Shown: positions 6,280-15,406 of the stretch, piece by piece
Layout of the letters: the number at the start of each line of letters is the position of its first letter
How positions within the stretch are numbered: the first letter of the stretch is position 1
NCBI GenBank assembly: GCA_937886445.1
Contig: CALGBY010000119.1
Span: 1 to 16,330, forward strand
DNA from: an uncultured Clostridia bacterium
GTDB taxonomy: Bacteria > Bacillota > Clostridia > Christensenellales > Aristaeellaceae
DNA: 16,330 nt
Reading direction: 5' to 3'
Position numbers and translations under genes: made by a program
The notes under the pieces: generated by a model
Told to the model about the DNA's origin: nothing
Seen by the model: the letters and a program-made list of their open reading frames with translations, nothing else
Database searches by the model: none

Positions 6280-7803
<1,524 letters not shown>

Positions 7804-12530: not shown

Positions 12531-12680
12531 GCCCGCGTTTCTCTTTTGAACGCCTTCACGGGGGCGGGCGGCAGCCGCGAAAAACGGTGAGAATATCATC
12601 GGCCTGCTGGCTATTCGGGAAATCTGTTCGTATATTCTTATGTAAGCCTGAGAGCATAACAGATGAAAAGGAGGCCCATT

Positions 12681-12941
12681 ATGGATATGATGAACAGGAT
12701 TGAGCTGAAGGATGAGCTGCTGCAGAATGTGACCGGCGGAGATCAGAAGCATTATGATGAGCTTTGCGAAAAGGCGGAAGCCTTTGTGAAAGTATGCGTT
12801 GAAAATGGGCTGAGCAAGGCTTACTATCAGTGTGAAATGAAAAAAATCATGGATGATTATATCGGAAAAGGCATGCTGGCAGGCAACGAACCCGGAAACC
12901 TGTGGAGAATCGTAGAGTATTACAGCCACAAGTTAAGGTAA
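12681..12941 (+). CDS. 86-aa precursor with double-glycine (GG) type leader peptide
   Basis: GGAGG (12670-12674) lies 6 nt before ATG 12681. The leader MDMMNRIELKDELLQNVTGG has hydrophobic residues at -4, -7 and -12 and ends in GG, with the predicted cleavage before codon 12741. The 66-aa core is helical-looking, near neutral and has 3 Cys. Confidence 0.6.
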   Translation: MDMMNRIELKDELLQNVTGGDQKHYDELCEKAEAFVKVCVENGLSKAYYQCEMKKIMDDYIGKGMLAGNEPGNLWRIVEYYSHKLR

Positions 12942-13037
12942 AAACAGTCAGCCTGTCTTTCAGAATGGATCACACAAAAACAGGTGAAGCTGCTTTCCAC
13001 CGAAGGACTGCTGTACGGCTCCCTCCCCGGGATGCAT

Positions 13038-13062
13038 CGAAGGGTCGCAGCCTTCGGTTTTT
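13038..13062 (+). terminator. First terminator-like hairpin after the peptide gene (H1 of module 1)
   Basis: cgaagg (13038-13043) pairs with ccttcg (13051-13056), followed by gTTTTT (13057-13062). Stronger 10-bp versions with T-runs sit at 13343-13369 and 13550-13577. Confidence 0.55.
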
Positions 13063-13135
13063 GATCCGTTCCCAAGGAAGCGATGATCAAAAGAGGCTGC
13101 CTGATTGATCAGTGATTCCGTAATCTGCTTCCGAT

Positions 13136-13185
13136 CGAAAAATGAGCGCTTCCGGTGTATGCTTTTCACCGGAAGCGCTTTTTAC
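13136..13185. terminator. Bidirectional intrinsic terminator (H3 of module 1)
   Basis: Perfect 13-bp stem agcgcttccggtg (13145-13157) / caccggaagcgct (13167-13179), flanked by gaaaaatg upstream and ttttt downstream. Confidence 0.7.
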
Positions 13186-13231
13186 AGGAGGCGGATGAAT
13201 CGAACGAAAGCAGGTAATGCCCAGCTTTCGT

Positions 13232-13335
13232 TCGAAGGGCGCAGTCCCGTTTCCTCCCCAAGGATGCATCGAAGGGCCGCAGCCCCGTTCCCTCCCCAAG
13301 GATGCATCGAAGGGCCGCAGCCCCGTTCCCTTCCC
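13232..13335. repeat. Tandem 37/38-bp repeat units (about 2.8 copies, running into module 2)
   Basis: aggatgcatcgaagggccgcagccccgttccctcccca (13261-13298) and aggatgcatcgaagggccgcagccccgttcccttccc (13299-13335). They are preceded by the degenerate copy tcgaagggcgcagtcccgtttcctcccca (13232-13260). Confidence 0.85.
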
Positions 13336-13647
13336 GGGATGCATCGAAGGGCCGCAGCCCTTCGATTTTCTATCCGCAGGCGGCGACATGTGCGTCGCCG
13401 AGGAGCGGCTGGAAGCCGCTTCCGATATTGGTTTCCGGCCGTAAAATGAGCGTTTTAGGTGTATACGGATCACCGAAAATGCCATTTTACAGGAAACCGA
13501 TGTGATCGTGTGAAAGCGGGTTACGCCCCGCTTTCGCACGAAAGGATGCATCGAAGGGCCGTAGCCCTTCGATTTTTGATCCGCAGGCGGCGACATGCGC
13601 GTCGCCGAGGAGCGGCTGGAAGCCGCTTCCTATATCCGTTTCCGGCC

Positions 13648-13687
13648 GTAAAAAGAGCGTTCCCGTTTTACGGAAACGCCTTTTTAC
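13648..13687. terminator. Bidirectional hairpin (H3 of module 3), likely terminator of the nucleoside hydrolase gene
   Basis: gtaaaaagagcgttcccg pairs with cggaaacgcctttttac. The minus-strand reading gives a hairpin followed by cucuuuuuac, ~65 nt past the hydrolase stop. The paralogous hairpin of module 2 sits at 13441-13490. Confidence 0.55.
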
Positions 13688-13751
13688 AGGAAACGGATGT
13701 AGTCGAAAGCAAGCGCGGCCTGCCCCGCTTGCTTTCGATGGGCGCAGCCCA

Positions 13752-14900
13752 TTATTGGCACAGCAGTTCTATTGCAACATTCCAAAAATCGTCATATCCT
13801 TCCGCCACAAATGCTTTGCCGTACCGCTCCTTCTGCGCGTCTTCAAGAAGGGCGTATTCCTCCTCTGTCAAAGCGGTGGTCATGGCATAGAAGGGGTCTG
13901 CCCGGTCCGTAACGATGGTGACATAGCTCGTTTTGCCGCGCAGGTTTTCAGCCTTCAGGAAGGCGGTCACGGTGAGGGGATCCCAGTACGGATAACCCGG
14001 CAGGACGGAAGCGTAGCGATCCAGCCAGAGCGCGGCGATCCCGCCCCGCCCCGCGTTTGCCTCTTCGATACGCTTCACTTCTTCTGTTCCGATCGGCGCG
14101 TTCACCTCACCGGGCAAAAACACCTGTACGGGAAAGCCTGCCGTTACGCAGGTGCTGAGCGAAAGCGCGTCATAGCAGGCGTTGTATTCCGCCCAGGGGG
14201 TGATGTTGGCTCCGCCCACCGCCTGCACGGGTTCGCCGCTCGTGAAGAAGGCTTCGCAGGGCGCGCCGAACGCGCCTGCCATGTAGTATACCGCAGCGAT
14301 GTTTGAAGCAAACGAGCTGTCCGCCTCCGCCGCGCGGGCAAGATTCATTACCGGGCCTATCGCGATCACGGTCACGCGCCCGGGGTATTCCTTCGCGCAG
14401 GAAAGCAGAAAATCGCGGGCGTCATTGCTGTCCGCAAGCGCGCCGGAGGAAAGATTTTCGTAAAAATGTATGGCGCCGTAGCCGCTGTTCGCCTGAAGAT
14501 AAGGCAGGCTTTCATAAAACGCGGAAAGCATGCCCGTATCGGAAGGGCCTGTGCCCGCCGGATAGTCTGTTCCGCGATATACCGGGATATCCTCACGCCC
14601 GATCAGGGCCAGAAGATCCGCGATGTTTTTGGTTTCGGCGGGCTGGACCTCGCCGTAGTTTATATAATCCGCGTCGATAAAATTGTTGCCGCCCTCCAGC
14701 GTGATGCCTATCACGCGCAGCATACCGGCCTCCTCCGCCTTCAGCAGCAGGGAGAGCGCCATAGCGTCATCATTGAAAACACCCATATCCGTGTCCAGGA
14801 TCACCAGCGGGATATCATCCTCCGCCAGGCAGCGGCAGAAAGCGCCCGCGAGGCAGGTGATCACAAGGGCAAACGAGATAAGTACGCGTATCCTCTTCAT
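13752..14900 (-). CDS. Secreted inosine-uridine-preferring-type nucleoside hydrolase family protein
   Basis: ILDTDMGVFNDDAMAL is the DXDXXXDD nucleoside-hydrolase fingerprint. The N-terminal signal peptide is MKRIRVLISFALVITCLAGAFCRCLA. GGAGGAAAGG lies upstream of ATG 14900. Confidence 0.85.
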   Translation of the reverse strand: MKRIRVLISFALVITCLAGAFCRCLAEDDIPLVILDTDMGVFNDDAMALSLLLKAEEAGMLRVIGITLEGGNNFIDADYINYGEVQPAETKNIADLLALIGREDIPVYRGTDYPAGTGPSDTGMLSAFYESLPYLQANSGYGAIHFYENLSSGALADSNDARDFLLSCAKEYPGRVTVIAIGPVMNLARAAEADSSFASNIAAVYYMAGAFGAPCEAFFTSGEPVQAVGGANITPWAEYNACYDALSLSTCVTAGFPVQVFLPGEVNAPIGTEEVKRIEEANAGRGGIAALWLDRYASVLPGYPYWDPLTVTAFLKAENLRGKTSYVTIVTDRADPFYAMTTALTEEEYALLEDAQKERYGKAFVAEGYDDFWNVAIELLCQ

Positions 14901-15079
14901 AGGCTTATGTCCTTTCCTCCGGATGAGGCGCCGAAAAACGGGCTGAGACCATTTTCACTTGCCTTTCCGGATGATCAGAATTTTTGTTTGCGGTTTGCCT
15001 GCCCGACGGGCCAGCGGAGAGGGGATAAACCCCTGAAGACCGCTTCCGTTCCGTACAGGATATCCGTACCGCGTTCACA
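14901..15079 (-). promoter_or_regulatory. ~180-nt structured 5' leader of the nucleoside hydrolase gene; class not recognised
   Basis: It lies between a consensus promoter and the ATG. Hairpins include gcgg-ucuuc-agggg-uuuau-ccccu-cu-ccgc and guacgg/ccuguac. The SD-bearing segment CCTTTCCTCCGGATGA (14911-14926, plus-strand text) is duplicated without the core TCC as CCTTTCCGGATGA (14962-14974). Confidence 0.45.
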
Positions 15080-15085
15080 CAGCTT

Positions 15086-15114
15086 ATCATATCATTCTTT
15101 TTTCACCCGTGCAA
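15086..15114 (-). promoter_or_regulatory. Sigma-A promoter of the nucleoside hydrolase gene
   Basis: On the minus strand: TTGCAC (15114-15109), 17-nt spacer, TGa-TATGAT (-10 at 15091-15086). Confidence 0.7.
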
Positions 15115-15200
15115 CCTGTTTCCAGCGGCGGCGTGAAGAATGTAGCGCGTGCCGTGTTCAATGTGCCGTGTGCCGGAAACACTCCGGCATGCAACTGAGA

Positions 15201-15310
15201 GTTACATATAGAAGCAAATAATTACAGCAAAGCAGAGCACAGGCATATGAAAGACATGTTCACGTTTATAATATGTAACCGCAGCAAACGAAAATCTGTA
15301 AAATGTAACC
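15201..15310. repeat. Inverted/direct GTTACAT half-sites in the AT-rich divergent control region
   Basis: GTTACATAT (15201-15209) is the reverse complement of ATATGTAAC (15271-15279). A third copy, AATGTAACC, sits at 15302-15310, 30 nt from the second. Confidence 0.5.
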
Positions 15311-15328
15311 AAATATATATAAAATCCC

Positions 15329-15357
15329 TTGACGCAGAAAGTATACAATGCTAAAAT
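15329..15357 (+). promoter_or_regulatory. Sigma-A promoter with extended -10
   Basis: TTGACG (15329-15334), 17-nt spacer, TGc-TAAAAT (15349-15357). Confidence 0.75.
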
Positions 15358-15406
15358 CTTACAGCGGTTTGAAGCCGCGAATAATCTTTCAAGGAGAAAT
15401 GTTACT

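Follow-up and report, generated by a model that had tools for sequence, protein, structure and literature searches.

We analysed a stretch of 16,330 nucleotides (hereafter the window) from an uncultured bacterium of the Clostridia (Aristaeellaceae; contig CALGBY010000119.1), in which an array of DNA hairpins lies between two convergent genes, one for a 92-aa peptide and the other for an inosine-uridine nucleoside hydrolase. The array (13004-13752) consists of three homologous multi-hairpin modules, each a series of hairpins named H1 to H4 (H2 being divided into H2a and H2b in modules 2 and 3), and of a 38-nt tandem repeat. It is very probably a cluster of three degenerate, head-to-tail copies of a MITE (miniature inverted-repeat transposable element), with two extra left-end fragments, from a family that is dispersed in uncultured rumen Clostridia and presumably mobilised by a transposase of the IS1182 family similar to that of the insertion sequence (IS) ISEfa7. 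The modules are homologous to the dispersed family; both the copies of this family and IS1182-family elements have terminal inverted repeats (TIRs) and adjoin duplicated host hairpins; and the array is unstable between closely related strains. The family belongs to a known kind, namely the non-autonomous derivatives of hairpin-targeting IS1182-family elements, and the array is an ordinary kind of selfish repeat, neither a new RNA nor a regulatory system.

When 185,579 species-representative genomes were scanned for exact matches to the H1 motif, 68 loci were found in 15 metagenome-assembled genomes (MAGs), all of uncultured rumen Clostridia or Clostridiales. The MAG RGIG7947 harbors 28 of the 68 loci, and four other MAGs have 5-6 each. 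Many loci are at contig ends, which is expected because the repeat breaks assemblies. An earlier annotation, made from the sequence of the window (hereafter the initial annotation), had reasoned that the array would lose its novelty if it proved to be a high-copy dispersed repeat with an already described family, and this is largely the case, the module being a high-copy dispersed repeat. The complete copies (28 in number) are 197-462 bp long, mostly 236-314 bp, and are non-coding, with no transposase gene. Intact copies are composed, in this order, of the left TIR CAGAYTGTCGAMAAA, a short spacer, H1, H2a/H2b, a long H3, H4 and a terminal hairpin; the last is made up of the TIR and its inverted copy (CAGNGTGTCGAAAAtacTTTTCGACACNCTG), that is, a doubled right TIR. 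Extra hairpin submodules in some copies and the lack of H3 and H4 in others make the family a mosaic one. The long variants (~300-460 bp) were considered as nested insertions, but this was rejected because their extra submodules replace H2a and have no flanking duplication. Two MAGs of different species (RUG563 and RUG14706) contain a copy with one and the same left flank; thus, some insertions predate the split of the lineages, or the region has been exchanged between them. The spacer and H1 variant specific to the window (CCTCCCCRRGGATGCATCGAAGGG) had no match in a metagenome scan, which thus added no copies to the window subfamily. A blastn search of annotated plasmids and phages with modules 2 and 3 also gave no match.

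In 22 of the 28 complete copies, the flanks carry a direct duplication of 18-38 bp (median 24) that folds as a hairpin. This host hairpin differs at every locus, is present on both sides of the element and, in canonical copies, directly abuts the left TIR; where a T-run is present, it follows just one of the two hairpin copies. The 40 nt upstream of the left TIR had a median folding energy of -14.0 kcal/mol, compared with -9.2 kcal/mol for random windows of the same loci (p = 1.5e-6).

The membership of the window modules in this family was examined with a profile hidden Markov model built from 17 foreign copies, with no window sequence, and searched with nhmmer. The profile matched 13332-13539 (module 2, E = 9.4e-50), 13544-13742 (module 3, E = 3.4e-47) and 13025-13241 (module 1, E = 3.6e-26), as well as two units of the 38-nt repeat at 13257-13285 and 13296-13323 (E of about 1e-6 each, profile positions 18-46). 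The module matches span only positions ~18-230 of the profile; because these represent the interior alone, the left TIR and the terminal hairpin are absent from the window modules.

All three modules, ~210-230 nt in size, are thus TIR-less MITE interiors on the plus strand, and their hairpins were located with a repeat finder. Module 1 (13025-13253, ~230 nt), the more diverged one, contains H1 at 13036-13058, H2 at 13076-13119, the long H3 at 13123-13196 and H4 at 13200-13235. It is followed by 3.4 copies of the 38-nt tandem repeat (13232-13360, plus strand; Tandem Repeats Finder score 216, 93% matches), the unit of which is composed of TCGAAGGGCCGCAGCCC, the left-end spacer and GATGCA, i.e., of left-end and half-H1 fragments. 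Module 2 (13332-13543) has H1 at 13343-13366, H2a at 13381-13400, H2b at 13402-13423, the long H3 at 13427-13501 and H4 at 13506-13541. In module 3 (13544-13752), the corresponding hairpins are at 13550-13573 (H1), 13588-13607 (H2a), 13609-13630 (H2b), 13634-13698 (long H3) and 13703-13738 (H4), and a terminal mini-hairpin occupies 13738-13752. The mean column identity across the three aligned modules is 81%, and modules 2 and 3 share 93% identity over 118 nt, the differences in H1 and H2a being confined to loops. H3 forms the top part of a composite helix of ~28 bp, in which ATCCGTTTCC pairs with GGAAACGGAT. The motif TCGAWGGGC(C)GCAGYCC recurs at 13232, 13269, 13307, 13344 and 13735, and ATCGAAGGGCCGCAGCCC was observed seven times in the window, compared with 0.03 expected. 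The segment 13325-13757 folds much more stably than shuffled sequences on either strand (z = -14.5), and so does module 1 (z = -6.4).

The three homologous hairpin modules described in the initial annotation were accordingly recovered, with re-derived coordinates for the listed hairpins, and so were the ~93% identity of modules 2 and 3 and the placement of their H1 and H2a differences in loops. In four other respects the description needs amendment. There are three modules, but they do not form an uninterrupted series, since the 38-nt repeat interrupts them. Module 1 is not a ~205-bp unit but ~230 nt long, and it is more diverged. A hairpin is present where H3 was described as one of ~20 bp, but it is only the top of the composite helix. 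The array does overlap the stop codon of the hydrolase gene (13752-13754), but merely by one base of the mini-hairpin.

The array was next to the same neighboring genes in two other contigs (L086 and L087), in which the hydrolase is 98% identical to that of the window. The convergent gap in these contigs is 483 bp, versus 810 bp in the window. Module 1 has lost the 5' arm of H4, one 38-nt unit exists instead of 3.4, and a single downstream module combines the H4 of module 3 (near-identical in L086) with an H3 cut to GTAAAACGAAGTTTTAC; module 2 has no counterpart in either contig. The indels between the window and these contigs include lengths that are not multiples of three, and the junctions resemble recombination products, not clean insertions. 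Strains with 98% identity thus differ by one module, by two 38-nt units and by deletions within H3 and H4, from which it follows that the array is unstable and that single hairpins can be dispensed with.

The connection to the IS1182 family is based on the element ends. In viral contigs scanned for the 16-nt TIR, this sequence came immediately behind host hairpins and formed the beginning of a complete IS, and the 16-19 terminal bases of the MITE also begin complete IS1182-family elements. One such IS (686-2249 of locus L069) has the family TIR CAGACTGTCGACAAAG(TCC), identical to the end of ISEfa7 at 18 of 19 positions, as its left end and ...TTTGTCTACAGTCTG as its right end, and it is flanked by a duplicated 21-bp hairpin. 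Its 444-aa open reading frame (ORF) scored 440 bits against NCBIfam NF033551 (IS1182 family transposase, cutoff 270) and also matches Pfam DUF772, DDE_Tnp_1 and DDE_Tnp_1_6. Two more transposases of ~50% identity (one in L091, the other in L075 and L078) adjoin the same end sequence. With a profile built from these three transposases, 80 metagenomic loci were retrieved; both ends (consensus CAGACTGTAGACAAA) were recognized in 69, of which 20 show an exact hairpin duplication of 19-28 bp. ISEfa7 itself (1536 bp, end CAGACTGTAGACAAAGTCC) belongs to the same clade, and its copies on finished Enterococcus faecium plasmids lie between duplicated hairpins (20 and 23 bp); an IS copy on a Staphylococcus simulans plasmid has a duplicated hairpin of 26 bp.

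The ISEfa7 clade (ends CAGACTGTMGACAAAG) and the rumen family are therefore alike in several features: their terminal 18-19 bases are almost identical (CAGACTGTAGACAAAGTCC versus CAGACTGTCGACAAAGTCC), one end has a hairpin of the TIR and its inverted copy, a subterminal hairpin precedes the right TIR, and insertions adjoin host hairpins, of which the whole 19-28 bp is duplicated. They differ in that the rumen element is ~250 bp long and has no transposase gene, whereas the IS are ~1540-1740 bp long, and in that H1-H4 are similar to no recovered IS. From the shared ends and insertion signature, we infer that the transposase mobilising the family in the rumen genomes is of this clade.

Other short elements were found with such ends. 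A second MITE family (L071, 463-654; ~192 bp) has a higher-GC interior unrelated to H1-H4, the exact 16-nt left end CAGACTGTCGACAAAG and flanks with a duplicated 28-bp hairpin (AACGGGGATGTGAT..TCACATCCCCGTTC). In L089, a 189-bp MITE at 6306-6494 (region 6283-6517), also with an unrelated interior, is situated downstream of a hydrolase homolog of 55% identity; its ends are CAGGCTGCTGACAAA and TTTATCAGCAAGCTG, and it lies between two exact copies of the 23-bp hairpin CTGCCTGAGTTATGCTCAGGCAG. In both, the ends resemble those of the rumen family and the hairpin duplication is of the same type. An IS1182-family element in L076 (3761-4457; 697 bp) has an internal deletion that leaves both ends but only the first ~127-158 transposase codons, and it is plausibly an intermediate between IS and MITE. 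On the S. simulans plasmid NZ_CP023496.1 (L172), the IS1182 copy (15519-16853) has mirrored flanking genes in a region of about 12800-22700, the same proteins being encoded at 13529-15387 (plus strand) and 20830-22688 (minus strand); this is either a large inverted duplication beside the IS or an assembly artefact. The sole TIR pair in the 68 loci that could have marked a partner element, 1.15 kb apart in L033, falls inside a response-regulator gene and was dismissed as a chance occurrence.

Several observations weigh against the assignment of the array to mobile, IS1182-driven MITEs. None of the three window modules has an intact TIR (the ends are missing or degenerate), so far as the array is concerned a host hairpin exists at its left only (12983-13001), with no duplicated flank hairpin, and the mobility of the modules is thus suggested by homology only. 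Tandem arrays comparable to that of the window were absent from the 68 loci. With the three transposases as queries, tblastn detected no IS1182 transposase either in the window or in the MAG loci that surround the copies (~450 kb). A search of 100 IS loci with the MITE profile (nhmmer) found no shared interior, and the hosts of the recovered IS are low-GC Bacillota other than the MITE-bearing lineages; for these reasons, the partner is identified solely by its ends and insertion signature. Moreover, 49 of the 69 metagenomic IS copies have differing hairpins at their two ends, which a simple duplication model does not predict, and one ISEfa7 insertion, found in two E. faecium plasmid records (L175/L176), also has two different flank hairpins; such differences could be due to recombination between copies, a second insertion mode or chimeric assembly. 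Finally, the covariation of stems throughout the family, described below, exceeds the needs of a passive MITE and is unexplained by the MITE model.

The formation of the array can be envisaged as follows. A DDE transposase of the IS1182 family, from the ISEfa7-like clade, would act on the MITE in trans and would recognise DNA hairpins or cruciforms, typically rho-independent terminators, instead of a sequence. The enzyme would join the element at the feet of the stem, and repair would then duplicate the whole hairpin on either side. Because terminators lie 3' of genes, a gap between convergent genes is an expected landing site. As each insertion would supply both hairpins and a duplicated target, accretion at one spot would be favored. 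The TIRs of the window copies were presumably removed when the direct repeats TCGAWGGGC(C)GCAGYCC recombined or slipped, and the same process would expand and contract the 38-nt unit and whole modules.

Precedents for such insertion exist. IS1272 and TnSha1 of the IS1182 family insert into hairpins of any sequence, mostly confirmed terminators, in either orientation and more than once at a given hairpin (PMC4923244; PMC5678879). The IS1272L variant has a tandem duplication of a 25-bp left-end sequence (PMC5678879), to which the 38-nt repeat of the window is a parallel. Both these elements and the rumen family target hairpins, usually a terminator 3' of a gene, but IS1272 and TnSha1 are reported to delete or replace part of the hairpin without target duplication, whereas the rumen family duplicates it intact. 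The latter outcome corresponds to pathway b of the published model, in which joining at the 5' feet of a cruciform duplicates the whole stem-loop (PMC5678879). The ISMac2-associated MITEs of the archaeon Methanosarcina, also derived from the IS1182 family, are 160-169 bp long with direct repeats of 0-4 bp (PMC3852290). They are, like the rumen family, short, non-coding and multi-copy, with inverted repeats common to an IS1182-family partner; unlike in the rumen family, neither hairpin-length duplications nor a multi-hairpin interior has been reported for them (PMC3852290).

In Streptococcus pneumoniae, the BOX, RUP and SPRITE repeats are modular, mosaic and hairpin-rich intergenic elements that cluster and insert beside or into each other (PMC3049150; PMC10969869); SPRITE resembles a rho-independent terminator, and RUP is linked to IS630, with TA duplication (PMC3049150; PMC10969869). 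By description, not by sequence, they resemble the window array in being modular, mosaic, hairpin-rich and clustered. BOX differs, however, in having neither a TIR and target-duplication signature nor a known transposase.

Repetitive extragenic palindromic (REP) units are imperfect palindromes of 20-40 nt, without TIRs or target duplications, that depend on a Y1 HUH enzyme (RAYT). Among the options of the initial annotation, a mosaic cluster resembling REP units and bacterial interspersed mosaic elements (BIMEs) comes closest, since the array is indeed a mosaic repeat cluster; as in REP/BIME clusters, its extragenic palindromes lie in a mosaic between convergent genes. Mobilisation by a RAYT, which would follow if the array were of this type, is nevertheless hardly conceivable. 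The rumen units are ~250 bp long, and because they have 15-nt TIRs and hairpin-length target duplications as in IS1182-family IS, the element is not REP/BIME-like. In addition, its ends match those of IS1182 DDE elements, and the window proteins scanned contain no RAYT/HUH domain.

For the analysis of covariation, 19 sequences (15 foreign copies, the three window modules and the L086 module) were aligned and folded with RNAalifold. The consensus contains 67 pairs, and 96.4% of the cells are paired. Two-sided changes were found in 30 of the 67 pairs, compared with 4-11 when the partners were slid by 1-3 columns, and the observed covariation values were attained in 0 of 500 shuffles. The proposal that the stems are kept through two-sided changes, made for the three modules, is therefore borne out across the family. 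The linkers between the helices are conserved as well, and H1 is invariant across the copies, which is an artefact because H1 was the search motif.

Such features would be expected if the modules specified a structured RNA, as the genes of a multi-copy small RNA or as cis-elements in a 3' untranslated region, and the TIRs merely spread it. A further point in favor of an RNA is that G.T cells outnumber A.C cells on the plus strand (71 versus 11). However, 48 of the 71 are in three fixed columns, leaving 23 sporadic G.T cells versus 11 A.C cells. The fixed columns (99/108, 117/139 and 144/221) contain plus-strand G.T wobbles in nearly all copies, which are A.C on the other strand, and they may reflect either one-strand folding or inheritance from a master copy. 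In the Rfam 15 scan that had been advised for the array, the whole window gave zero matches at E <= 1 on both strands; a promoter scan found no promoter-like site within the array; the orientation of copies is not biased relative to the polarity of flanking terminators (T-run right only, 7; A-run left only, 9; both, 9); and the folding energy shows no strand preference. In the near-identical strains described above, most of H3 and half of one H4 are gone, and many stem differences are swaps of whole hairpins or of several bases. Taken together, the replacements in H2-H4, the G.T columns, the equal folding of both strands, the balanced orientation and the lack of Rfam matches and promoter-like sites argue against a strand-specific RNA gene. 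So the small-RNA option finds no support, and we regard an RNA origin of the modules as very unlikely.

Selection on structure, to which the compensated stems had been attributed, is not secured either, given the loss of H3 and part of H4 in the 98%-identical strains and the many differences that look like replacements of whole hairpins or of several bases. Stems may instead be kept by a mutational process, such as template switching or gene conversion from arm to arm, or the replacement of whole hairpins in IS1182-type events. Where H2a, H2b and H4 exist in alternative versions, these differ from each other at nearly all positions, including the loops. The H3 cores comprise 29 distinct sequences in 33 copies, 15 to 28 nt in length, all of which form hairpins between conserved AAAATG and CATTTT flanks; such variation suggests replacement, or conversion between the arms, more than compensation in single steps. 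In the H4s of the window, compensations affect adjacent bases together, and sporadic G.T cells are not clearly commoner than A.C cells. IS1272, moreover, has been reported to replace target inverted repeats (PMC5678879). On the other hand, helices 6 and 7 contain several single-position compensations (AU:12 with CG:5 and UA:10 with AU:7 among them), which are less easily reconciled with such a process. We consider a mutational origin of the paired changes to be a real possibility, somewhat short of probable.

Whatever maintains the stems, an array of hairpins at gene 3' ends may affect transcription. A terminator scan found six sites, compared with 2.4 expected, among them, on the plus strand, every H1 and, on the minus strand, the H3 of module 3. 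The array might thus have been co-opted as a multi-terminator or insulator between the peptide and hydrolase genes, a role compatible with its MITE origin: H1 with its T-run would stop plus-strand transcription, and the H3 hairpins, with their A/T flanks, would do so in both directions. The H3 cores, hypervariable and yet always hairpins with conserved flanks, would suit such a role. So would the insertion mode, which parts a copy of the host hairpin from its T-run; because of this separation, a built-in terminator would lessen the harm done by insertion. The T-runs, however, are short (4-5 T), those of H3 are inside the longer helix, canonical copies do not conserve the T-run that follows H1 (many have GATTGTAATCC), and the same genes are kept in relatives in which H3 is nearly deleted. 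A terminator effect as a by-product of the array is possible from these predictions, while co-option for insulation seems to us unlikely. That the MITE interior as a whole (H1, H2a/b, the 28-bp composite H3, H4 and the linkers) is kept by selection for a function is more doubtful still. Such a function could conceivably be that of a portable bidirectional terminator or insulator repairing the disrupted terminator, or of a structured donor nucleic acid needed by a hairpin-recognising transposase. If the interior were so selected, a structure-guided transposon would have built functional multi-terminator blocks in the form of such arrays.

At its left edge, the array abuts a host hairpin (12983-13001), terminator-like on the minus strand in the terminator scan (GGTGGAAAGCAGCTTCACC then TGTTTTTGTG), which is the probable original insertion target. 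No second copy of this hairpin is present right of the array, and it is unique in the window. The adjoining 13004-13030 (plus strand), the degenerate left end of module 1, consists of a possible TIR remnant (AGGACTGCTGTAC) and a spacer (GGCTCCCTCCCCGG) and occupies the slot of CAGAYTGTCGAMAAA and GTCCCCGG in canonical copies; as just ~6-7 of 13 bases match a TIR, the reading of 13004-13016 as a degenerate TIR is suggestive only. At the opposite edge, 13758-13770 forms an inverted repeat with 13004-13014 and was considered as a right TIR. This was rejected, since it encodes the conserved hydrolase C-terminus ELLC: the ending ...AIELLCx* is conserved in homologs at 44-69% identity, and the segment is therefore coding.

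The upstream flanking gene is the 92-aa ORF (12663-12941, plus strand), seen in the ORF list and its translation and conserved in L086 and L087. Its N-terminus, ...MNRIELKDELLQNVTGG/DQKHY..., has a double-glycine leader-like motif followed by a Cys-containing part of 67 residues; the ORF had no match in Pfam and is preceded by FRG-domain, TetR and VanW/G5 genes. The convergent downstream gene (13752-14900, minus strand) encodes the inosine-uridine nucleoside hydrolase (Pfam PF01156, E = 8e-36), the native C-terminus of which ends 1 nt into the last mini-hairpin; an exact lookup of this protein returned no record.

In short, what was a candidate for a novel RNA array receives a concrete annotation, as part of a MITE family, so far without a name, from uncultured rumen Clostridia. 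Because its copies break MAG assemblies and sit at the 3' ends of genes, knowledge of the family aids assembly, annotation and the prediction of terminators and small RNAs. The family also provides many natural cases of structure-guided insertion, with a duplication as long as the host terminator hairpin (18-38 bp), and these complement the work on staphylococcal IS1272, in which the hairpin is deleted.

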